Source: an uncultured Candidatus Saccharibacteria bacterium (GTDB lineage Bacteria; Patescibacteriota; Minisyncoccia; Phycocordibacterales; UBA1550). Taken from it: a stretch of 64,000 bases of DNA. Positions within the stretch are counted from its first letter, which is position 1; each line of letters opens with the position of its first letter. The DNA lies in NCBI GenBank assembly GCA_964457625.1, contig CAYWES010000002.1:30239-94238 (forward strand), given 5' to 3'. The notes under the pieces were generated by a model, which saw nothing but the letters and a program-made list of their open reading frames with translations, made no database searches and was not told the DNA's origin. A program made the position numbers and the translations under genes. Below, in pieces: positions 29,699 to 46,492 of this stretch.

Positions 29699-29728
29699 TT
29701 GACAAATGCAACTCAGTTGCGTTAAGAT
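29699..29728 (+). promoter_or_regulatory. Putative fur promoter with an embedded inverted repeat GCAACT-c-AGTTGC
   Basis: TTGACA at 29699-29704. The perfect 6-1-6 inverted repeat at 29708-29720 sits in the spacer. TAAGAT follows, with the ATG at 29735. Confidence 0.35.
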
Positions 29729-31835: not shown

Positions 31836-32492
31836 ATGACAACACGAACAACCCACATTGCATTTTGGTCTCTGGTGCTTCTGATGATAGCGTTTGGCGC
31901 ATGGGCGTATCCGATGCTTCCCGATCAAATTGCTTCACATTGGAATATCGCGGGTGAGGCGGATGGATTTATGGGGAAGTTTTGGGGCGTCCTTCTTTTC
32001 CCCCTCATGACCGCGGGGATAGGACTTCTCTTTGCGCTCATCCCCAAGATTGATCCTTTAAAGAAAAACATCGAGGGATTTAGGAAGACATACAATATAT
32101 TTTGGTTTTCCGTCGGACTCTTTATGGCGTATATGTTCACGCTGTCACTCGTATGGAATCTCGGAACGCCGTTTGATTTCAGTCTTGCGATTATTCCCGC
32201 GTTCGCGGTCTTTTTCTACGGCATTGGCGTAATCCTCGAGCGCTCAAAGCGAAATTGGTTTATGGGTATCCGTACGCCGTGGACGCTATCAAGCGATACG
32301 GTGTGGGAAAAGACACATCTTCTTGGCGCGAAGCTTTTTAAAATAGCAGGTATCGCCTCTCTCCTCGGACTCCTCTTTGAGGGTGGGTGGCGTTTCGTTG
32401 CGCTCATGGTTCCCCTTGCGTGTGCGGCGCTCATTCCTATTATCTATTCGTACGTCCTCTACCGACGAGAGGAGACAGATAACACTCAGTAG
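31836..32492 (+). CDS. SdpI/DUF1648 family membrane protein
   Basis: LPDQIASHWNIAGEADGF matches the DUF1648 signature (P..I..HWN..GE.D..GSK). Four TM helices. Confidence 0.55.
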   Translation: MTTRTTHIAFWSLVLLMIAFGAWAYPMLPDQIASHWNIAGEADGFMGKFWGVLLFPLMTAGIGLLFALIPKIDPLKKNIEGFRKTYNIFWFSVGLFMAYMFTLSLVWNLGTPFDFSLAIIPAFAVFFYGIGVILERSKRNWFMGIRTPWTLSSDTVWEKTHLLGAKLFKIAGIASLLGLLFEGGWRFVALMVPLACAALIPIIYSYVLYRREETDNTQ

Positions 32493-35260: not shown

Positions 35261-35333
35261 GCCACTTTAGCTCAGTTGGTAGAGCAACGCTTTTGTAAAG
35301 CGAAGGTCCCCAGTTCAAGTCTGGGAAGTGGCT
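35261..35333 (+). tRNA. tRNA-Thr (anticodon UGU)
   Basis: Hand-folded cloverleaf: perfect 7-bp acceptor stem GCCACTT/AAGTGGC, anticodon loop UUUGUAA, T-loop TTCAAGT, no encoded CCA. Confidence 0.85.
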
Positions 35334-35377
35334 CCCGTTCGCAAAACTCCCACCAAACATCTAATCTCCGCGAGACT

Positions 35378-35475
35378 CCGCAAGGTGTTTTCAACTGCAC
35401 GCATATTTTTCTGCTGAAAAATTGCTCCGCTCGGACCAGTCGTCCTGCGACGAGGCACTTGAAAACACCTTGTCT
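35378..35475 (+). other. Conserved structured intergenic element, copy B, enclosed by a 14-bp long-range stem
   Basis: CAAGGTGTTTTCAA (35381-35394) pairs perfectly with TTGAAAACACCTTG (35459-35472). These arms enclose the shared core and internal hairpins. Lies between tRNA-Thr and the serpin promoter module. Confidence 0.4.
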
Positions 35476-35532
35476 TCGTCTCCCTGAACTACATAGGGTT
35501 ACCCTATGTAGATACCCTATGTAGAAGAAAAA

Positions 35533-35567
35533 TTGACAATCCCACGGGGGGGGGGGGGTTTTATATA
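35533..35567 (+). promoter_or_regulatory. Promoter-like module: TTGACA, 23-nt spacer containing a G13 tract, then TATATA, immediately before the serpin ATG
   Basis: TTGACA at 35533-35538, G13 at 35546-35558, TATATA at 35562-35567, ATG at 35572. Confidence 0.45.
35546..35558. repeat. G13 homopolymer tract
   Basis: Thirteen consecutive G, read directly from the sequence. Confidence 0.95.
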
Positions 35568-35571
35568 TATC

Positions 35572-36852
35572 ATGTCACAAAAATCATTTCCCTGGGCTAA
35601 ATTATTCTTGAGCATCTTTTTGGTTTTGCTTGTTGCGGTTATCGGACGAGGTCTATGGGCGTATTACAAGGTTCAGGTTGTGGTACAAGAGGCGGTGCCC
35701 ACACCTCCTCTTGTACCACCTACCGCAAGCATCCCGAGTCATATCGTGGAAGCGCATACCACCTTTGGATTTAATGTTTTGAAATCTCTTGCCTCTACAT
35801 CTGAAGACAACATCTTTATCTCGCCATCAAGTATCGCGCTCGCGCTTTCTATGCTTTATAACGGCGCACGCGGTGCTACTCAGGATGCTATGGCAAAAAC
35901 TCTCGCTCTCGAGGGAATAGATCTCAAGACCCTGAATCAGGAAAGTTTGGGACTCATTAATACGCTCAATAATCCTGAGATGGGAGTTGAGCTTGCTATT
36001 GCAAATTCAGTTTGGGCGCGTGAAGGAGTGTCGTTTGAGAAAGACTTTCTTGATGGTGTCGTTCAGTACTTCCACGCAGAGCTTGCAACTCTTGATTTTA
36101 GAAATGAGCAGGCGGCTAACACGATTAATGCATGGGTGAATAAAAACACAAAAGGAAAAATCCCTGGAATCATTCAACCGCCTATTCCCGCAGACATGAT
36201 GATGTACCTCATTAATGCTGTGTACTTCAAGGGTTCGTGGACCACTCCTTTTGATAAGGGCGATACTCGTGTTGCGCAATTTACCAACGGAGACAAAACT
36301 GTACAACAGATCCCGTTTATGTATCGCGGGGGTTTTATGCCTTATTTCGAAACAGCGGATTTTCAGAGTGTCATGTTACCATATGGGCCGTCTGGCCAAC
36401 CTCCGCTCGTGAGCATGTATGTGTTTTTGCCCAAAAAGTCACTTGCGGATTTTGTATCCACCTTGGACAAAGCCGTGTGGGACATATGGATGAATTCATA
36501 AAGAGGGGAGAGGGGTACACTCTTGTTGCCTAAATTTAAGCTCGAATACGTGACGGAGCTTCGCCCTGTCCTCGGTATTCTTGGTATGGATATTGCGTTT
36601 ACGAATGGTGCTGACTTAGGAGGTCTTGCTCAAGGACTTTCTATCAGTAGTGTGCTACACAAAACATATGTTGATGTTAACGAAGAAGGTACGGAGGCTG
36701 CTGCCGTGACGGCTGTTAGTGTCGGGGCAACGTCTGTTAATCTCGACCCGCCAAAGGAATTTTATATGAATGTGAATCAGCCATTCTTTGTTGCGATTCG
36801 TGAGAACACAACGGGAGAGATTCTATTTACGGGACTTATTCAGAAGCCGTAA
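35572..36852 (+). pseudogene. Serpin (serine protease inhibitor) with an N-terminal membrane anchor, interrupted by one in-frame TAA at 36499-36501
   Basis: Serpin hallmarks: IFISPSSIALALSMLYNGARG, the hinge/reactive-centre loop GTEAAAVTAVSVGATS and the C-terminal NQPFFVAIRE. The two track ORFs (35533-36501 and 36523-36852) share one frame and are separated only by the TAA. Confidence 0.6.
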
Positions 36853-36930
36853 TAGACCTTGAATGGTGGGGGGCTATACACAAAAAACCATGGTAGCAAT
36901 GCCGTGGTTTTTTGTGTATGATGGTCCTAC

Positions 36931-37671
36931 ATGACTAATCAAGAGAAGGTCCAAGTGGGTCACATGCACCCCATCACTCAAATGATTCGTGAAATCACGG
37001 ATTCGTTTGTTGCCATGGGATTTGAAATTGCGGATGGACCGGAAGTTGAGAGCGAGCATTATAACTTTGATGCGCTCAATGTGCCCAAAGATCACCCCGC
37101 GCGCGATATGCAAGACACGTTTTGGGTAAAAGGCGTTCCCGAGACCGTGCTTCGTACGCACACGTCCTCGATCCAAGCACGCTTTATGGAGACACACACT
37201 CCTCCTTTCAAGATTGTCGCGCCGGGAAAAGTGTATCGCTACGAAGCCACCGACGCCACGCACGAGACTCAGTTTCATCAGATTGAATGCCTTGTCGTGG
37301 GAGAGGGGATTTCTCTCGCGCATCTGAAACACACGCTTCAAGATTTTTTCAAGAGAATCTATGGGGACAAGGTTGTCGTGCGTACGCGCCCAAGCTTCTT
37401 CCCCTTTGTGGAGCCGGGGGTTGAAATAGATATCTCTTGTTCAAAATGTGATGGCGCGGGATGTGGTATGTGCAAGCACACGGGGTTTATTGAGGTAATG
37501 GGTGGAGGCATGGTGCACCCCAATGTTCTCAAGTCTGTAGGCATTGATCCGCGCAAGTACACGGGCTTTGCCTTTGGCGGAGGAATAGATCGTCTCGTCA
37601 TGCTTAAATACGGCATTGATGATGTGCGCCTTCTGTATTCTGGCGATCTTCGCTTGGTGAATCAATTTTAA
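36931..37671 (+). CDS. pheS: Phenylalanyl-tRNA synthetase alpha subunit (short form)
   Basis: Class II motifs FDALNVPKDHPARDMQDTFW and GGG...FAFGGGIDRL. Confidence 0.9.
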   Translation: MTNQEKVQVGHMHPITQMIREITDSFVAMGFEIADGPEVESEHYNFDALNVPKDHPARDMQDTFWVKGVPETVLRTHTSSIQARFMETHTPPFKIVAPGKVYRYEATDATHETQFHQIECLVVGEGISLAHLKHTLQDFFKRIYGDKVVVRTRPSFFPFVEPGVEIDISCSKCDGAGCGMCKHTGFIEVMGGGMVHPNVLKSVGIDPRKYTGFAFGGGIDRLVMLKYGIDDVRLLYSGDLRLVNQF

Positions 37672-37677
37672 TACGAC

Positions 37678-40050
37678 ATGAACATCCCCATTTCCTACAA
37701 CTGGCTCAAATCTCATTTTGAGAAAGAGATCCCTTCTCCCGAGGAGATTTCGCGTCTTTTTATGCTACACCTCTGCGAGGTTGAAGGTATGGAGAAAAAA
37801 GGGAGCGACACGATTTTTGATCTCAAGATTCTCCCTGATCGTGGGCATGATCTCCTCGCACATCGCGGGATTGCGCGCGAGGTCTCAGTGCTCGCGGGTA
37901 TCCCACTCCGCCCTCTTCCGAGCGCTCCCGATGTACGCGGTGTCACTACTCCTCTCCGCGTGACGGTAGAGGATTCTCAGAGGTGTCCGCGCTACATGGG
38001 GCGTGTTATTTCCGGTATTACGGTGGGAGAATCTCCCACATGGCTCAAAGAGCGCCTTGAGTCCGTCGGACAGCGTTCAATCAATACTATTGTTGATGTC
38101 ACAAACTTCGTCATGCTTGAGCTCGGACAGCCGATGCACGCATTTGATGGAAGCAATATTGAAAAGCGTGATGGTGCATATGAGATTGCCGTGCGCGGGG
38201 CGCAAGAAGGTGAGACCATGACTACACTTGATGGAAAAAATCTTGTCCTTACATCCGACACGCTTGTGATTGCGGATTCCGCTCGCGTGCTCGCGCTTGC
38301 GGGGATCAAAGGGGGGAAGGCGGCGGAGGTTGGGTCTTCTGCAGACACGATCATTCTTGAGTCGGCAAACTTCAATGCCGTAACCACCCGTCGTACGAGC
38401 GCGCGTGTAGGTATTCGTACTGATTCATCAAAGCGCTTTGAACATGAGCTTTCGCCCGCGCTCGCCGAGCAGGCGATGGATCTTGCAAGCGCACTCATCC
38501 TCGAGCTTTGTCCTCGTGCAGAGCTGGGGGAAGTGGTGGATGTTTGCGCTCAGTCGCCAAAGCAGTACAAGGTTGGTATTTCTCTTTCGGAGCTGAACGG
38601 GATTTTAGGCTCATCGTTTGAGAAAAAAGAAGTAGAAGACCTTCTCATGCGGATTGGTTTTGAATACACTGTCGTACCTAATCCTCTTCAATTTGTACTC
38701 GCAGAGGCACCAAAGCAAGCAGGGAAAGCATATCGCCTTGATGCAAGCGTTCTCCATGATGCGCCCGAAACATTTGATTGCTCAAGTTTGGTGGCGTACC
38801 TTTGGAAAGAAGCGGGAGTCTCCCTACCGCGCATGTCGGTGGATCAGATGGTGTTTGGAGATCCTGTCGAAGAATCAGACATGAAGCCGAGCGATTTGGT
38901 ATTTTCAAACAGTGAAGAAGGTGCGATTTTTTATGAATCACAGGAATGGATGCCCGGGACGCCCGTACCCGAAGGCATTGATCATGTGGGAATCTACCTC
39001 GGTGATGACAAAATCATTCACGCATCACGCTACAACGAACACGGCGTTGAGATACAGACTCTTTCAGGTAACCCAATCTTTAAAAAAATCGTAGGGATTC
39101 GTCGTGTCGCTCATGCTGATGAAGAGCGTTTTGTGATTACTATTCCCCTTGAGCGCCTGGACTTGCGTATCAAAGAAGATATTGCAGAGGAGATTGGTCG
39201 CGTGTACGGATTTCATAATATCCCTCCCGCACCGCTTCCTGAGCTTTCTTTTATCCCGAGCCATCTCAAGGCATACTACTACGCGGGCAAGATTCGCGAT
39301 GCACTCGTCACCGCAGGGTTCTCAGAAGTCTTTACCTATTCGTTCCAAAACACAGGCGCATTTGCCGTGGAAAATCCGATAGCAGAGGACAAGGGCTTCT
39401 TGAGAAAAGACCTCGCCACGGGAATCCGCGACGCACTCGTGATGAACGCGCGTCATGCACCCCTTCTCGCACGGGATGACATCAAGATTTTTGAAATAGG
39501 AGCCGTGTACCCCGGAGTAATGGAAGAAAAGCTCTCCTGTGCTATCGGCGTGGAGCTCACCAAGCAGGGAAAGAAAAAAACCGAGCTCACGCGTGCTGAG
39601 CTTGAGAATGCGCAAAAGATAGTGAGTGAAGTACTCGGCGTATCGTTGGATGGGGTATTTACCGAAAACACGTTTGAGTTTGAGTTCGGCGCGCTTCTCG
39701 CGAATCTGCCTGAGATACCTCCTCAGGAGAAAGGATTTGTTTCCGCAGACACGCGCTACACAAAAATCTCCGCGTATCCCTTTGTCCTCCGCGATATTGC
39801 TCTCTGGGTACCTGAGCACGTCTCAAGCGATGACATTGTGACGCTCATTCGGGAGGAGGGAAGCGAGCTCCTCAAAGTGGTGCGCCTCTTTGATGTGTTT
39901 ACCAAGGAATTCCCCGAAGGCAAAAAGACCTCCTATGCATTTAATTTGGTCTTTCAGTCACACGAAAAAACACTCTCCGATGATGAGGTAAACGCTATCA
40001 TGGAGCGCGTCACGCATCGTCTCACCGCCAAAGAATACACCGTGCGCTAA
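37678..40050 (+). CDS. pheT: Phenylalanyl-tRNA synthetase beta subunit with an inserted NlpC/P60-like domain
   Basis: B1, B3/B4, B5, B6/7 and C-terminal FDX-ACB-like regions are recognisable. Residues ~345-476 match NlpC/P60 (DCSSLVAYLW...PSDLVFS...HVGIYLGDDKIIHAS). Confidence 0.9.
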   Translation: MNIPISYNWLKSHFEKEIPSPEEISRLFMLHLCEVEGMEKKGSDTIFDLKILPDRGHDLLAHRGIAREVSVLAGIPLRPLPSAPDVRGVTTPLRVTVEDSQRCPRYMGRVISGITVGESPTWLKERLESVGQRSINTIVDVTNFVMLELGQPMHAFDGSNIEKRDGAYEIAVRGAQEGETMTTLDGKNLVLTSDTLVIADSARVLALAGIKGGKAAEVGSSADTIILESANFNAVTTRRTSARVGIRTDSSKRFEHELSPALAEQAMDLASALILELCPRAELGEVVDVCAQSPKQYKVGISLSELNGILGSSFEKKEVEDLLMRIGFEYTVVPNPLQFVLAEAPKQAGKAYRLDASVLHDAPETFDCSSLVAYLWKEAGVSLPRMSVDQMVFGDPVEESDMKPSDLVFSNSEEGAIFYESQEWMPGTPVPEGIDHVGIYLGDDKIIHASRYNEHGVEIQTLSGNPIFKKIVGIRRVAHADEERFVITIPLERLDLRIKEDIAEEIGRVYGFHNIPPAPLPELSFIPSHLKAYYYAGKIRDALVTAGFSEVFTYSFQNTGAFAVENPIAEDKGFLRKDLATGIRDALVMNARHAPLLARDDIKIFEIGAVYPGVMEEKLSCAIGVELTKQGKKKTELTRAELENAQKIVSEVLGVSLDGVFTENTFEFEFGALLANLPEIPPQEKGFVSADTRYTKISAYPFVLRDIALWVPEHVSSDDIVTLIREEGSELLKVVRLFDVFTKEFPEGKKTSYAFNLVFQSHEKTLSDDEVNAIMERVTHRLTAKEYTVR

Positions 40051-40056
40051 GTCTCT

Positions 40057-40602
40057 ATGATTATTTCTACTCCGTATTACTCTCAATATCTGGATGTGGG
40101 AGATTCTTTTTGGAAAGAGCGGACATGCGCGATTGCGTGCGCAAAGATACTCATTGAGACTGCGGGAGGAAGCGCGCCGGGGCTTGATGTGATGACGATG
40201 CGCGGGATTGAGCTTGAAGCGTATGATCCGCGGTTTGGCTGGATTCATGACGGACTCATTCGCCTTGCGGAAGAGTATGGCACGACGCTTACGCGCAAAG
40301 AATGGCGGACAAAAGAAGATGAAAAGGCGCTCAAAGAGAATCTCAATCAAGAGGGAATTGCATTTTTAATTGAAACACTCAACACAGGGCGCCCCCTCGC
40401 AATATCCACGATTCGCACCTTCACCGAGCAAGAGACATTTCATATGGTGGTCCTCGTGGGATATGAGGAAGGGATAGAGGGAATCGGGGGCTTTTACTAT
40501 CACGACCCGGATGCGCATACGCGCGAGGACGGGATGAACCGTTTTGTTGATATTCAGACCTTCAAAAACTCTTGGCGTTGTATGGCTATTTTTGCCCCAT
40601 AA
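40057..40602 (+). CDS. Peptidase C39-like (C39_2/BtrH-like papain-fold) protein
   Basis: YYSQ...C nucleophile context (TCAIACAK), the His motif HMVVLVGYEE and YYHDP. No signal peptide. Confidence 0.55.
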   Translation: MIISTPYYSQYLDVGDSFWKERTCAIACAKILIETAGGSAPGLDVMTMRGIELEAYDPRFGWIHDGLIRLAEEYGTTLTRKEWRTKEDEKALKENLNQEGIAFLIETLNTGRPLAISTIRTFTEQETFHMVVLVGYEEGIEGIGGFYYHDPDAHTREDGMNRFVDIQTFKNSWRCMAIFAP

Positions 40603-40684
40603 ACACTGTTGCAGAAGGCATTTTTATGCTATACTGGGTGCATAGCAAAGGATGCCTCATAGGGGTATTTTTGTTTACTACACA

Positions 40685-42745
40685 ATGGCGAAAAAAGCAC
40701 CCACAGGATCATACGGAGCAGAGGACATTGTCGTTCTCGAAGGGCTTGAGCCGGTGCGCAAGCGCCCGGGTATGTATATTGGATCTACGGGTCCCGAGGG
40801 TCTCCACCACCTCATTTGGGAAATCTTTGACAACTCGCGTGACGAGGCGATGAACGGTCACGCAAACCACATTGAGGTTGCGCTCCTTCCGGGAAATCGC
40901 GTACGTATCGTTGATAATGGTCGCGGTATTCCCGTGGGCATTCACCCAAAGACAAAAGTCTCTGCGCTTGAGACAATCATGACCACCCTCCATGCCGGAG
41001 GAAAGTTTGAAGGCGCAAACTACAAAGTCTCCGGCGGTCTCCATGGAGTGGGTGCGTCCGTGGTAAACGCGCTCTCTGTCGCGACCAAGGTAGAAGTACA
41101 CCAAGACGGCTCGGTGCATATGCAGGAGTACGAGCGTGGCAAGAGAAAGTCCGCGGTGAAGGTTGTCGGCAAGACGAAATTTCGCGGAACTATTGTGACG
41201 TTTGAGCCGGACGAACTCATTTTCAAAGAGATGGGGTGGAGCTGGAATCAGATTGTGAGCCACCTTCGTCAGCAGGCGTACTTGGTAAAGGCGCTCCGCA
41301 TCACGGTGATTGACGCGCGCGAGTACACCGGGAAGCTCAATCTTGAAAACGAGGCATACCTCGGTACCTTTGGACTTGAAGTCCCTTCTATGTCATTTTA
41401 CTTTGACGGAGGACTTGTCTCCCTCATTCGTTTTTATAATCAATACCAAAAGCCCGTTCACAAGAATATTTGCCATATTGATAAAGAAGTGGACGAGGTA
41501 CAGGTGGAAGTCGCGATTCAATATATTGACGACATCGCGTCTCGCGAGCTTGCTTTTGCAAACAACACTTACAACGCCGAAGGAGGTACGCACGTCACGG
41601 GATTTCGTACCGCGCTTACGCGCAAGCTCAATGACTACGGACGCAAAAACGGCTTCATCAAGGAAAATGACGAAAACTTCACCGCAGACGATGTACGCGA
41701 AGGTCTCACCGCCGCAATCTCCGTCAAAATGCGTGAGATTCAGTTTGAAGGGCAGACAAAAGGCAAGCTCGGAAGCGTGGAAGCGCGTGGTGCTGTTGAA
41801 AAGGCGTTTGGTGAAGCGCTCGGACTCTTTCTTGAAGAAAATCCTGACGACGCACGCGCGATTATCAACAAAGTAGTCCTCGCGCTCCGTGCGCGCAAGG
41901 CGGCAAAGGCGGCAAAGGAGTCCGTCCTCCGCAAGGGCGCCCTCGAGGGGCTCACCCTTCCTGGTAAGCTTGCTGACTGTCAGACTTCAAAAGCGGAAGA
42001 ATCTGAAATCTTTATCGTAGAGGGAGATTCCGCGGGTGGTTCTTCAAAGCAGGGTCGTGATCGTCGCACACAGGCGATCCTTCCGCTCAAGGGTAAAATC
42101 CTCAATGTAGAGCGCGCCCGTCTGGACAAAATGCTCGCGTCTGCCGAGATTCGTTCGCTGGTCATTGCCATGGGGTGTGGTATCGGTGATGTGTTTGATG
42201 TTGAGAAGCTTCGCTATCACAAGATTATCATCGCGACCGATGCCGACGTCGACGGAGCGCATATTCGCACGCTCATTTTGACGCTCTTGTATCGCTATTT
42301 CCGTCCCGTCATTGAAGGCGGATATGTATATATCGCACAGCCTCCTCTGTACAAGATTACCTACAACAAGCAAGTACACTACGCGTACTCCGACGAGGAG
42401 CGTGACAAGACGTATCTCACGCTGGGCTTCAAGCAGGAAGATTTTGCAAACGTAGATACCGCGGAAGCGGAAAACCAAGAAGGTGCGGGCGAAGAAGCGG
42501 AGGAAGAGGTCGTCGCAAAGAAAAAGAAACTCCCTTCAACCCAGCGCTACAAGGGTCTCGGTGAAATGAACCCCGAAGAGCTCTGGGAGACGACGATGGA
42601 TCCAAAGACGCGCGTCTTGAAGCAGGTGACTATTGAGGATGCGGTGGACGCGGACCGCGCCATCAACGTGCTCATGGGTGAGGATGTTGCGTCGCGCAAG
42701 TCCTTTATTCAGTCCAATGCCAAAATGGCAAATATTGATGTATAA
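40685..42745 (+). CDS. gyrB: DNA gyrase subunit B
   Basis: GHKL ATPase motifs (HHLIWEIFDNSRDEA, GGLHGVGASVVNALS), the TOPRIM EGDSAGGS, and C-terminal PLxGK and QRYKGLGEM. Confidence 0.9.
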   Translation: MAKKAPTGSYGAEDIVVLEGLEPVRKRPGMYIGSTGPEGLHHLIWEIFDNSRDEAMNGHANHIEVALLPGNRVRIVDNGRGIPVGIHPKTKVSALETIMTTLHAGGKFEGANYKVSGGLHGVGASVVNALSVATKVEVHQDGSVHMQEYERGKRKSAVKVVGKTKFRGTIVTFEPDELIFKEMGWSWNQIVSHLRQQAYLVKALRITVIDAREYTGKLNLENEAYLGTFGLEVPSMSFYFDGGLVSLIRFYNQYQKPVHKNICHIDKEVDEVQVEVAIQYIDDIASRELAFANNTYNAEGGTHVTGFRTALTRKLNDYGRKNGFIKENDENFTADDVREGLTAAISVKMREIQFEGQTKGKLGSVEARGAVEKAFGEALGLFLEENPDDARAIINKVVLALRARKAAKAAKESVLRKGALEGLTLPGKLADCQTSKAEESEIFIVEGDSAGGSSKQGRDRRTQAILPLKGKILNVERARLDKMLASAEIRSLVIAMGCGIGDVFDVEKLRYHKIIIATDADVDGAHIRTLILTLLYRYFRPVIEGGYVYIAQPPLYKITYNKQVHYAYSDEERDKTYLTLGFKQEDFANVDTAEAENQEGAGEEAEEEVVAKKKKLPSTQRYKGLGEMNPEELWETTMDPKTRVLKQVTIEDAVDADRAINVLMGEDVASRKSFIQSNAKMANIDV

Positions 42746-42783
42746 AGGGAGAGAAGGTATACTAAAGAAGGCCACAAACGCTT

Positions 42784-42933
42784 ATGGAAAGAATCAAGAA
42801 CGTAGTATGGAATAAGAAGAGCAAAGTTGTTATCGCGCTCATTGTGGTTGTTCTTGCTATCTATGGAGGATTTATGTGGAACAAAAAATCAGCGCAAGCA
42901 CCTGAGACGGAAGCACCTTTCTCGGTAGAGTAG
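42784..42933 (+). CDS. Small single-TM protein (49 aa), putative
   Basis: ATG ORF below the track threshold with one hydrophobic helix (VVIALIVVVLAIYGGF). Located between gyrB and the next gene. Confidence 0.3.
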   Translation: MERIKNVVWNKKSKVVIALIVVVLAIYGGFMWNKKSAQAPETEAPFSVE

Positions 42934-42982
42934 GTGAGTCGTGCGACAAAGATTATCGGGAGACGTAACTTTTAGTAATAAT

Positions 42983-43219
42983 ATGAGAATCATTGGTATT
43001 GTATTTCTTGCCGTAGGTATTATTTCACTTTTGGTGAACTACGGTATTGTAAGCCCCGCAACATGGGCAATCGTATGGCCTATCGCTTTGATCGTCGCGG
43101 GTATCGTCATCCTCACCAAGGCGTATCACCGCTCAGGATGCGGATGTGGCGTCTGTGGTATCGGCGGAAAAAAGAAGCATGTGTGCGCTACGGGGGACTG
43201 CAAGGATTGCGGTAAATAA
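42983..43219 (+). CDS. Small membrane protein with a Cys-rich C-terminal tail
   Basis: Two TM helices, then CGCGVCGIGGKKKHVCATGDCKDCGK. Followed by a strong terminator. Confidence 0.45.
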   Translation: MRIIGIVFLAVGIISLLVNYGIVSPATWAIVWPIALIVAGIVILTKAYHRSGCGCGVCGIGGKKKHVCATGDCKDCGK

Positions 43220-43252
43220 GATCCTTTTTTAGCATCAGTACATGATGTACGG

Positions 43253-43290
43253 AAAGCGGGCGAGACCGAAGGTCTCGCCCGCTTTCTCTT
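43253..43290 (+). terminator. Rho-independent terminator
   Basis: AAAGCGGGCGAGACC-GAA-GGTCTCGCCCGCTTT (15-bp perfect stem) followed by a T-rich run. Confidence 0.8.
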
Positions 43291-43299
43291 TCCCCCATA

Positions 43300-43331
43300 T
43301 TGACATTCGTATGGGGGGGGGGGGCTATGAT
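43300..43331 (+). promoter_or_regulatory. Promoter-like module: TTGACA, 20-nt spacer containing a G12 tract, then TATGAT, immediately before the membrane-protein ATG
   Basis: TTGACA at 43300-43305, G12 at 43313-43324, TATGAT at 43326-43331, ATG at 43338. Same architecture and flanks (ATTGACAnTCnnAnG-Gn) as the module at 35533. Confidence 0.45.
43313..43324. repeat. G12 homopolymer tract
   Basis: Twelve consecutive G, read directly from the sequence. Confidence 0.95.
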
Positions 43332-43337
43332 GTTAGG

Positions 43338-44159
43338 ATGAATGAACAAAAAGTTGAAAAGGGCGGTAGTAAGGACTTAGCGTGGTTAATGTTGGTTATT
43401 TTTTCTTTGATTGCTGCTTCTCGTGCGCTTGATTTCGAACTATCTCACCCATTAGTTGTCCCTTCTGGGCTTTCTTTTATGGGGCACTCAACGGTTTTCA
43501 TTGTTTTATCTCTTGTTCTTGCTCTTATTTTTTATTCAGTACCGAGGAAATTATTTAGTAAAAGCAAGGTATCCTTGTTTGATTATAATACAATTGTCGT
43601 TGCCTGTATTTTCTTGGTGCTATTATCTCTAGCCCAGTCGCAACCTTCATATAAACAACAATATCGTGGGAGTAGCCTAAATCAAACTCACTCGGAGCGA
43701 ATAGTTTCAGAAGATGTATATCGCAGTGACCAATATGGGTTTGAAATTAAATTTCCTAAAAATTGGGAAGTTCACACTGATACTAGGTATCCAGGGATAG
43801 AAGCTTTTTCTCCAGATACCACCACAAGCATACGCATAGCATCTGTGGATTTTTCTCATGAGGATATTTCTTCCATAAAAGACCTGGGACCGGTGAGCTT
43901 TGTATCAAGAATGATTGCTGCAACCATAGAAGAAGAAGGATCTAGTAATGTTAGAATCATTAATTATGGAGAAAGGAAAGTTAATGACGCACCAGCTTAC
44001 TGGACAGAAGTTTCTTTTTATGGCGGAACACTACTCGCTTACTCTATTTATGAAAAAAATAAATTTTACCAAATTGTTGGTTCCGTAACTCAAGGTGGGA
44101 GGTATGAAGACATAAAAAAGGATTTTGTGGACGTATTCTCAACTTTCCGTGTTCTTTAG
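43338..44159 (+). CDS. Membrane protein with a C-terminal extracytoplasmic domain, hypothetical
   Basis: Three predicted TM helices. AT-rich coding sequence. A G12 tract and a TTGACA element lie immediately upstream. Confidence 0.5.
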   Translation: MNEQKVEKGGSKDLAWLMLVIFSLIAASRALDFELSHPLVVPSGLSFMGHSTVFIVLSLVLALIFYSVPRKLFSKSKVSLFDYNTIVVACIFLVLLSLAQSQPSYKQQYRGSSLNQTHSERIVSEDVYRSDQYGFEIKFPKNWEVHTDTRYPGIEAFSPDTTTSIRIASVDFSHEDISSIKDLGPVSFVSRMIAATIEEEGSSNVRIINYGERKVNDAPAYWTEVSFYGGTLLAYSIYEKNKFYQIVGSVTQGGRYEDIKKDFVDVFSTFRVL

Positions 44160-44173
44160 ATAACGCCGACATT

Positions 44174-44728
44174 ATGAGAAACATCTGTGACGTTGAGAGT
44201 GAGATTATCGACCAAATACTAATTAGCGAGACTTGTTTTGATGTTTGTAAGGAGATTCCTATATTAAGTGGAAGAGGAAGTGACTTTTTACCATTTTACT
44301 ATAATCTGAGCCTTTCTAAGGGGATTCTCTTGCTCAACAGCTTATTGGTTACACCAAGAGATGACGAACTATCTATAAGATATTTCCTGAATCTCTATAA
44401 GCAAACACATCCAGCTAAGGATTTAAAAGAGATTGAGGCGAAGATAGATACTCTCAGGCTCTCTTTTAAGACTATGTATCCAGTGTCGCTAAGACATAAG
44501 ATGGTCGCCCATCTTGATGACAAGTTTAAACATGGAGATTTTACATGTGCATATCTTGTCCCTGAATCTCTTGAAAAATTTAGAGAAATTACAAAGGATC
44601 TAAAAGAGGTTATTTTTACTATTACAAATTTTTCTATAGATTATCCTCATCACGCGAATATAATGAGACAAACGAAAATTATAGTTGAGCAAATTCTAAA
44701 GGAATCTGAAGAGCGACTTTCGCTATAA
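44174..44728 (+). CDS. Hypothetical alpha-helical protein with a possible HEPN-like Rx5H motif
   Basis: AT-rich ORF containing RHKMVAH. No confident family. Confidence 0.4.
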   Translation: MRNICDVESEIIDQILISETCFDVCKEIPILSGRGSDFLPFYYNLSLSKGILLLNSLLVTPRDDELSIRYFLNLYKQTHPAKDLKEIEAKIDTLRLSFKTMYPVSLRHKMVAHLDDKFKHGDFTCAYLVPESLEKFREITKDLKEVIFTITNFSIDYPHHANIMRQTKIIVEQILKESEERLSL

Positions 44729-44731
44729 GGG

Positions 44732-46492
44732 TTACCAAACCGCCTTCTCTTTGATGTCGCGGAGTGTTCCGTTGATGAAATCCGCGAGGGGGTGCGTTTC
44801 GCCTTTTTCAAAACCACGACATTCTGCGGTCACCGTCCCTGCTTCAGCTTCTTTGTCCCCAAGCACGAGTACATACGGCACTTTTGCTGTCTTTGCGACA
44901 CGGATGCGTTTGCCGAGGCTGTCGTTTGAGGCATTGAGTTCTACGCGTATGCCGACTGCAAGGAGTTCATCGCGTACTTTTTCTGCATACGCATTGTGCG
45001 CTTCGGCGACAGGGAGTACGACGACCTGCGTGGGCACGAGCCAGAGGGGGAAGTTCCCCGCAAGGTGCTCGATCAGAGTAGACATAAAGCGCTCAATAGA
45101 GCCCATAATCGCGCAGTGTACCATCACGATAGTTTCTTTTTCTCCTTTTTCATTCGTACACACAAGTCCGAAGTTTTGTGGTTGATTGAAGTCAAGCTGA
45201 ATGGTTGCGACCTGGAGCGTGCGCCCGAGAGAATCTTTTGCAATGAAGTCAATTTTTGGTCCATACATTGCGGCTTCGCCTTTGCCATCAATGTAGTCGG
45301 TGATACCGCGCTTCTTCATGAGAGAGAGGAGTGCGGTCTCAGCCTTTTCCCAGACGTCTTTCGTCCCGAGGTAAGTTTCAAAGTTTTCAGGATCGTGGCG
45401 CGAAAAACGAATCTGCATTTCGCCGAAGTTGAATGTTTTATAAAACGTATCAATGATGTCCCAGATAGCAAAGACTTCTTCCTCAATCTGATTTTCACGA
45501 CAAAAGACGTGCGCGTCATCCTGAGTGATGGAGAGTACGCGGGAAAGGCCCGAGAGCTCGCCTGATTGTTCGTCGCGGTATACCATCGTCGTCTCGCAGT
45601 AGCGCTGAGGCATATCGCGGTAGCTTCTCGGCTCCGCGTCAAAAATCTGCGTATGGTGAGGGCAGTTCATGGGCTTCATCGCGTACTCGTGTTTTTCACG
45701 CGTGGTGATTCTAAAGAGTTCGTCGGCAAACTTTTTCCAGTGCCCTGATGTTTCGTAGAGAGCCTTTTTGGTGATATGAGGGATGGTCACCTTTTGGTAC
45801 CCTCGCACGCGACGGAGCTCCCACACATAATCATTGAGTGCTTCGCGGATGAAGGTGCCTTTTGGTGTCCAGAGGGGAAGCCCTGAACCCACAAGCTCTG
45901 AAAATACAAAGAGCCCGAGTTCCTTTCCGATTTTTCTGTGGTCGCGCTTCTTTGCTTCTTCTTGCTGTTTCTCGTACGCGGTGAGTTCCTCGGGGGTTTC
46001 AAACGCGAGTCCGTAGATACGGGTGAGCATGGGATTCTTTTCATCTCCGCGCCAGTAGGCGCCCGCGGTATGGGTAATCTTAAACGCATCAGTGTTGATG
46101 TCTTTTGTCGTGTCTACATGACCGCCTTTGCAGAGATCGGTAAAGGTGCCGAGCGTGTAGAGGGTGAGTGTCTTTGCTTCTTCTGCGAATTCATTGAGAA
46201 GCTCAAGCTTGTAAGGCTGGTCGGTGAAAAGTCCGCGCGCTTCCTCGGGCGATACCTCGCGCCCCTCCATGGCGAGTCCTTTGCCGACGATCTTTTTCAT
46301 CGCTTTTTGGAAATCTTTGAGGTCGTCGGGAGTAGGGGTGTAGCCTTTTGAAAATTCAAAGTCGTAGTAAAAGCCGTTATCAATCACCGGTCCGATACCA
46401 AGCTTCGCGCCGGGGTCTTTTTCAAGGACGACGGTTGCAAGGACGTGCGCCAAGGTGTGGCGGATATTGTGGAGCTTTGAGGTCTCAGTCAT
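44732..46492 (-). CDS. thrS: Threonyl-tRNA synthetase (lacks the N-terminal TGS extension)
   Basis: Class II core, anticodon-binding domain and the HRKIGKELGLF motif. Confidence 0.9.
   Translation of the reverse strand: MTETSKLHNIRHTLAHVLATVVLEKDPGAKLGIGPVIDNGFYYDFEFSKGYTPTPDDLKDFQKAMKKIVGKGLAMEGREVSPEEARGLFTDQPYKLELLNEFAEEAKTLTLYTLGTFTDLCKGGHVDTTKDINTDAFKITHTAGAYWRGDEKNPMLTRIYGLAFETPEELTAYEKQQEEAKKRDHRKIGKELGLFVFSELVGSGLPLWTPKGTFIREALNDYVWELRRVRGYQKVTIPHITKKALYETSGHWKKFADELFRITTREKHEYAMKPMNCPHHTQIFDAEPRSYRDMPQRYCETTMVYRDEQSGELSGLSRVLSITQDDAHVFCRENQIEEEVFAIWDIIDTFYKTFNFGEMQIRFSRHDPENFETYLGTKDVWEKAETALLSLMKKRGITDYIDGKGEAAMYGPKIDFIAKDSLGRTLQVATIQLDFNQPQNFGLVCTNEKGEKETIVMVHCAIMGSIERFMSTLIEHLAGNFPLWLVPTQVVVLPVAEAHNAYAEKVRDELLAVGIRVELNASNDSLGKRIRVAKTAKVPYVLVLGDKEAEAGTVTAECRGFEKGETHPLADFINGTLRDIKEKAVW

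Follow-up and report, generated by a model that had tools for sequence, protein, structure and literature searches.

Phase variation that depends on simple repeats is characteristic of pathogens adapted to their hosts. At some loci the repeat is a homopolymer in a promoter, where a change in its length alters the spacing of promoter elements and turns surface proteins on or off; examples are the poly-C tracts of fim2 and fim3 in Bordetella pertussis and the poly-A tract of vlp in Mycoplasma hyorhinis. The closest described systems use G. A poly-G tract lies between the -10 and the -35 of Neisseria meningitidis porA, and in Treponema pallidum tp0126 a poly-G tract likewise separates the -35 from the -10, with transcription being best at a 17-nt spacing (PMC7864442). 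T. pallidum also carries poly-G tracts of at least 8 residues in the promoters of putative surface-protein genes, and variation of their length within isolates was measured (PMC7864442). Here we describe two G homopolymers, each placed behind a -35 hexamer and upstream of a start codon, in a window of 64,000 nucleotides (the whole stretch of DNA that was analysed) from an uncultured Candidatus Saccharibacteria bacterium. Bacteria of the candidate phyla radiation (CPR) are tiny, mostly uncultivated episymbionts whose surface variation and defence are poorly known, and our literature searches found no work that connects phase variation with Patescibacteria or the CPR.

Anatomy of the poly-G promoters

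The first promoter to be considered lies at 43299-43340 of the forward strand and reads A-TTGACA-ttcgtat-GGGGGGGGGGGG-c-TATGAT-gttagg-ATG. A perfect consensus -35 hexamer (TTGACA, 43300-43305), one of 16 TTGACA within the 64 kb, is followed by a 20-nt spacer (43306-43325), most of which is a G12 homopolymeric tract (43313-43324) that is also G12 in the Logan assembly; the -10 hexamer (TATGAT, 43326-43331) then lies 6 nt upstream of the ATG at 43338, which is a leaderless geometry. The original prediction had described TTGACA-G12-TATGAT with a 20-nt spacer before this ATG, and this is borne out by the sequence. Upstream, a GC-rich hairpin with a perfect 17-bp stem (43251-43287, forward strand; inverted repeat I1) is predicted to be the terminator of a LiaF-TM-like gene. 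Its fold energy is -33.7 kcal/mol (z = -6.4), and an equally good fold was obtained in 0 of 200 shuffles. The -35 hexamer stands 12 nt 3′ of this hairpin, and the order at the 5′ side of the islet is terminator, promoter and leaderless gene. Thus placed, the poly-G tract lies between the hexamers of what looks like a genuine sigma-70-type promoter, directly upstream of the first gene of the islet (gene 1). The LiaF-TM-like gene (42941-43219) encodes a membrane protein of 92 aa with a cysteine-rich C-terminal tail, CGCGVCGIGGKKKHVCATGDCKDCGK, which is possibly metal-binding. A G-quadruplex reading of the tracts was set aside, since a stable intramolecular G4 of three tetrads would need a longer run than G12-13.

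To our knowledge, no promoter rules for CPR bacteria have been determined by experiment. Ordinary promoters in this genome have spacers of 17-18 nt, as illustrated by the promoter of a fur-like gene at 29699 (TTGACA-N18-TAAGAT-N6-ATG) and by those at 31836 (TTGATA-N17-TAGTCT-N6-ATG) and 14803 (TTGACA-N17-TATTAT). Among the 32 gene calls accompanying the Logan contigs, TANNNT was found exactly 6 nt 5′ of the ATG in five (26679, 28269, 29735, 31836 and 43338), against a background of 5.4% of all ATGs with TANNNT at gaps of 5-8 combined. This geometry suggests that leaderless mRNAs are frequent in the host CPR genome. Judged by these conventions, the islet promoter has the form of a regular promoter of its host, except for the 20-nt, mostly-G spacer; a tract of G9-G10 would bring it to 17-18 nt. 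The N6 distance is likewise seen in another Patescibacteria MAG, where a serpin homologue is preceded by TATATT-N6-ATG (L128, 2985-3003).

The sister module, upstream of a serpin gene, occupies 35532-35574 of the forward strand and reads A-TTGACA(35533-35538)-atcccac-G13(35546-35558)-ttttatatatatc-ATG(35572). Both sites have the same geometry, namely TTGACA, 7 nt, a G tract, 13 nt and ATG, and the spacers of the poly-G promoters are 19-21 nt long. At the serpin site the -10 is a degenerate TTTTAT in the NCBI version, whereas the Logan version has G12 and then TATTAT. This arrangement was compared with chance. A shuffled window is expected to contain 0.07 G10 runs, and every match observed in the actual sequence falls in the two tracts; the pattern ATTGACANTCNNANG8 is seen twice against 0.00 expected, which upholds the earlier claim that this is not a chance G run. 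The hexamer TTGACA is strongly depleted in the window (16 against 37 ± 6.5 in shuffles), as expected if a functional -35 is avoided elsewhere, and 2 of the 16 stand exactly 7 nt 5′ of the window's only two long G tracts. No further long G tract was found in the 64-kb window and 8.4 kb of the Logan contig L129. Over these ~72 kb, G/C run lengths are bimodal, with runs being either at most 6 or 12-13 long and none between, which speaks against the long runs being simply the tail end of mutational noise. The two-tract arrangement is real and non-random.

As at porA and tp0126, a homopolymer of about 8 residues or more lies between -35 and -10, a change of a few units would, by geometry, carry the spacer across 17 ± 1 nt, and the genes downstream are accessory ones with predicted surface, host-interaction or defence functions. 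The likeness to porA is that the G homopolymer is the spacer and its length sets the distance between -35 and -10; porA, too, encodes a surface protein. Unlike porA, the present locus belongs to a CPR phylum, has a leaderless geometry and is assembled in a state 3 nt above the optimum, and its switching is a prediction. It resembles tp0126 in having poly-G between -35 and -10, and Treponema MAGs are prominent among the matches listed in the genome scan described below. In tprE/G/J/L, in contrast, the tract lies just 5′ of the transcription start site and is not strictly a spacer. The Treponema genes further differ in having leaders and ribosome-binding sites, and for them both the variation of the tract and its influence on expression have been measured. 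With fim2/fim3 and vlp there is no sequence relationship; those tracts are of other nucleotides, and the Bordetella promoters have a BvgA activator site.

The genes behind the promoters and their setting

Gene 1 (43338-44159, forward strand) encodes a membrane protein of 273 aa. A profile search and a structure model indicate three TM helices near its N terminus and a domain of the PsbP family at its C terminus. Hydrophobic helices span residues 10-36, 43-67 and 80-100 in the low-confidence model, and a short basic tail precedes TM1 in the 273-aa form. The PsbP domain (PF01789) scored 34.8 bits against a cut-off of 23.5, with residues 128-272 matching positions 6-155 of the 155 in the profile. 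The model has a pLDDT of 43, too poor for confirmation of the fold, because the protein has no homologues; a search of 5.8 billion proteins returned no relatives, the only match being the protein itself. With three helices in that low-confidence model and PF01789 above its threshold, the prediction of a 3-TM protein with an extracytoplasmic domain downstream of the promoter was supported.

Gene 2 (44174-44728, forward strand) encodes a protein of 184 aa that is all-helical in its AlphaFold model (pLDDT 88); a family search assigned it to a small family of 24 representatives. Residues R107 and H113, which form an Rx5H motif, are invariant in 14 family members. Weak matches to HEPN_AbiU2 (PF18734) were obtained for 6 of these 14 relatives (best E = 0.0013), while gene 2 itself had no match in Pfam or PADLOC and a Foldseek search of its fold against PDB and BFVD returned nothing significant. 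Gene 2 is thus possibly an HEPN/AbiU2-like protein, which would make it an RNase toxin or an abortive-infection protein; since neither the fold nor the profile searches gave confirmation, "HEPN-like" is to be taken as a lead only.

The two genes are probably co-transcribed. The stop codon of gene 2 lies 3 nt from that of the convergent thrS (44726-44734, TAA-ggg-TTA), with no terminator between them. The GC content is 0.35-0.37 over 43500-44750 and ~0.50 in the flanks, so that the much lower GC of both islet genes relative to their neighbours, noted at the outset, is confirmed. In two syntenic relatives (L125 and L126) the gene order pheS-pheT-C39 peptidase-gyrB-[gap]-thrS-dnaE-rnhB is kept, and the gap between gyrB and thrS contains unrelated genes in one and is empty in the other. 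Similarly, the serpin slot, 5′ of pheS and beside tRNA-Thr, is variable among the syntenic relatives. No G/C run of 7 or more was found in L125 or L126, and no poly-G was found in two serpin homologues (L127 and L128). The islet and serpin proteins were found only in one 98.6-kb NCBI contig and in the Logan run SRR16797977, and the exact flanks of the two sites had no match in JGI metagenomes. Judging from this synteny, the poly-G-driven genes are lineage-specific accessory genes, and we infer that the islet of two genes was horizontally acquired. Within the conserved block, PheT (37678-40050) has an inserted NlpC/P60 (C40 peptidase) domain at residues 363-476, which is kept in dozens of homologues from Yonathbacteria, Paceibacterota and Campbellbacteria and is absent from other close relatives (~640 aa); the best named relatives of this PheT are proteins of "Candidatus Yonathbacteria", Paceibacterota and Patescibacteria, at 61-67% identity. 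A mobile-element reading of the islet was also tried. The sole candidate, an imperfect 13-nt direct repeat at 43279-43291 and 44740-44752 (CCGCTTTCTCTTT and CCGCCTTCTCTTT) on either side of the promoter and islet, was rejected as probably due to chance, because it is one of 15 similar repeat families at chance level within 2.2 kb and its second copy falls inside the coding sequence of thrS.

The gene behind the sister module (35572-36855, forward strand) encodes, by profile search, a serpin with an N-terminal membrane anchor, whose best named relatives are proteins of Patescibacteria and Uhrbacteria with 55-60% identity. The matches of PheT and the serpin place the host in the Patescibacteria (CPR), within the Parcubacteria/Paceibacterota lineage near "Candidatus Yonathbacteria", and no close relative has been sequenced. 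An in-frame TAA at 36499-36501 (codon 310) is present in both assemblies, after which the frame continues unchanged to 36855; with this codon in the NCBI as well as the Logan assembly, the serpin gene looks like a nonsense pseudogene or a split gene. Both poly-G promoters precede genes that are AT-rich or accessory, with predicted products that face outwards and are membrane-anchored or extracytoplasmic.

The surroundings of the serpin promoter have features of their own. Just 5′ of its -35, an operator-like site (35489-35524) consists of a perfect palindrome, CTACATAGGGT-t-ACCCTATGTAG, and then a third half-site, ACCCTATGTAG; this is possibly a regulator binding site, and no counterpart of the palindrome was found at the islet promoter. 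Further upstream, just 3′ of tRNA-Thr (35261-35335), an 18-nt inverted repeat with 94% complementarity (35381-35398 and 35455-35472) has arms 56 nt apart. The Logan contig L124 stops at 35425 within this repeat, and the Logan contigs used here lack the following 120 nt, as far as the serpin tract. The region 35381-35472 may be a variable junction.

Tract length and the same layout in other genomes

As a proxy for tract length, the Logan assembly of SRR16797977 was compared with the NCBI assembly. The islet tract is G12 in both, whereas the serpin tract is G13 in NCBI and G12 in Logan. The Logan contig L123, which spans 35546-43334, from the serpin tract to just beyond the second tract, differs from the window at two places only, namely G12 for G13 at the serpin site and T35560A; with the latter change the sequence after the tract becomes TATTAT, which makes a good -10 at a spacing of 19 nt. 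A second contig, L001, spans 43314-44734, which is almost exactly the islet, and begins within the second tract; the next contig starts from 44708. Across the 31 kb from 25287 to 56492, the contig ends known are at the two tracts and the right edge of the islet only, and the 120-nt unassembled gap precedes the serpin tract. These observations are a hint of tract-length variation; they are not proof, because Illumina homopolymer errors at low coverage would give the same picture.

The layout TTGACA-N7-G11 was then searched for in 185,579 GTDB species genomes. At least 120 sites were found, with 110 usable (TTGACA-N7-G≥11) among the matches listed. In 53 of these 110, TANNNT directly follows the tract; at offsets of 1-24 in the same 110 sites, the background count of TANNNT is 1-14, with a median of 3. 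The matches listed come from Treponema, Clostridia, Bacilli, Streptococcus, Planctomycetota, Chloroflexota, Saccharibacteria, Nomurabacteria, Paceibacterota and others, their assembled spacers are mostly 18-20 nt, and the next gene in the Patescibacteria and Treponema examples among them encodes mostly a signal-peptide protein or a lipoprotein. More than one site per MAG was seen in several of the Treponema and gut Clostridia or Bacilli MAGs listed (for example, L082, L083 and L031 belong to one MAG, and L122 has two identical copies). Since about half of the sites listed have a -10 directly after the tract, long G tracts 5′ of genes are usually promoter spacers, not artefacts. It follows for MAG annotation that open reading frames called through long G tracts, such as a 305-aa call at the present locus, are likely to be over-extended. 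The breadth of the TTGACA-N7-Gn-TANNNT layout points to a widespread convergent design and not to a cassette copied within the host genome.

A candidate switch and its alternatives

Based on these results we favour, with moderate confidence, the view that the element is a sigma-70-type promoter with a spacer that is largely a hypermutable G run, which makes it a candidate for a phase-variable switch that controls a leaderless operon of accessory genes. Slipped-strand mispairing at replication would add or remove Gs, and the changed number of Gs would shift the distance between TTGACA and TATGAT and hence the binding of RNA polymerase. The assembled G12 state, with its 20-nt spacer, would be weak or off, and G9-G10, at 17-18 nt, would be on. 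Transcription would start at or beside the A of the ATG at 43338 and would give a leaderless mRNA over the two-gene islet. We infer that tract length varies in the population and that this variation affects expression.

The main rival is that we are looking at decay and not at switching. On this account the G run grew by slippage under weak selection in the promoter of acquired genes and the promoter is now inactive, an outcome that we regard as unlikely, if deserving of weight. With G12-13 both promoters are 2-4 nt too long and may simply be dead; their 19-21-nt spacers fall outside the 17-18 nt of the normal promoters here. The serpin behind the first tract has its in-frame TAA in both assemblies and, in the NCBI version, a degenerate -10, and gene 1 is an orphan without relatives. 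Against this, at two independent tracts exactly 7 nt separate a perfect -35 from the Gs and 13 nt the Gs from an ATG, and runs of 7-11 are missing from the 72 kb, which would be hard to obtain via neutral slippage. Furthermore, the same layout with an intact -10 recurs in dozens of genomes, and the reading frames of genes 1 and 2 are both intact.

An intragenic frameshift switch, which we consider improbable, would place the tract inside the coding sequence. The real gene would then be the 305-aa reading frame from the ATG at 43242, as in the NCBI annotation, with G12 encoding GGGG; indeed, no stop codon interrupts the frame between 43242 and the gene, across the tract, and P0001, the protein in the database, has the 305 aa. 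However, the extension crosses the -33.7 kcal/mol hairpin, which starts 9 nt after the ATG at 43242, as well as a perfect -35 and a -10 hexamer, and it lacks a promoter and an SD of its own. In the 273-aa form, by contrast, a short basic tail leads into TM1, the TATGAT-N6-ATG geometry matches that of four other genes, and at the serpin copy the tract and the ATG are likewise 13 nt apart. Because the start at 43242 precedes the terminator hairpin and the promoter hexamers, the 305-aa call is best taken as an over-extension and the tract is probably untranslated.

A duplicated or mobile promoter cassette, copied to two places, is very improbable. This was close to the original prediction, which had seen two copies of one designed cassette with closely matching flanks. 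The two sites do have an identical geometry, and the A before TTGACA and a TC..A in the 7-nt spacers are common to both. In a pairwise alignment, though, agreement within the 7-nt spacers is limited to 3 bases, and outside ATTGACA..Gn there is no homology; nor did a repeat search around the sites find flanking repeats common to both. Of the claimed match between flanks, the A before TTGACA stands, and the remainder does not. What the sites have in common is their functional elements, the flanks and spacer letters being unrelated, and the notion of a single copied cassette is not sustained. Because over 50 unrelated genomes, drawn from many phyla, show the same TTGACA-N7-Gn-TANNNT layout, the resemblance of the copies is attributed to convergence. 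Finally, a sequencing or assembly artefact, such as poly-G from two-colour chemistry, is scarcely credible: poly-G artefacts do occur in public assemblies (one locus of the scan, L078, ends in G97) and Logan contigs end at the tracts, but both tracts are internal with unique sequence on either side, are present in two independent assemblies and are placed with base precision within the promoter geometry.

Returning to the phase-variable promoter that we favour, we tentatively consider a wider possibility, which we put forward as speculation. In CPR episymbionts, homopolymer-spacer promoters may serve as stochastic switches for acquired surface or defence modules. The islet described here might then be a phase-variable abortive-infection or host-interaction unit, composed of a PsbP-like membrane protein and an HEPN-type RNase and expressed from a leaderless mRNA, and the design might be pan-bacterial, convergent and far commoner than in the pathogens studied. 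If this is true, a slippage switch on accessory surface and defence genes would offer a concrete, testable handle on variation in CPR bacteria.
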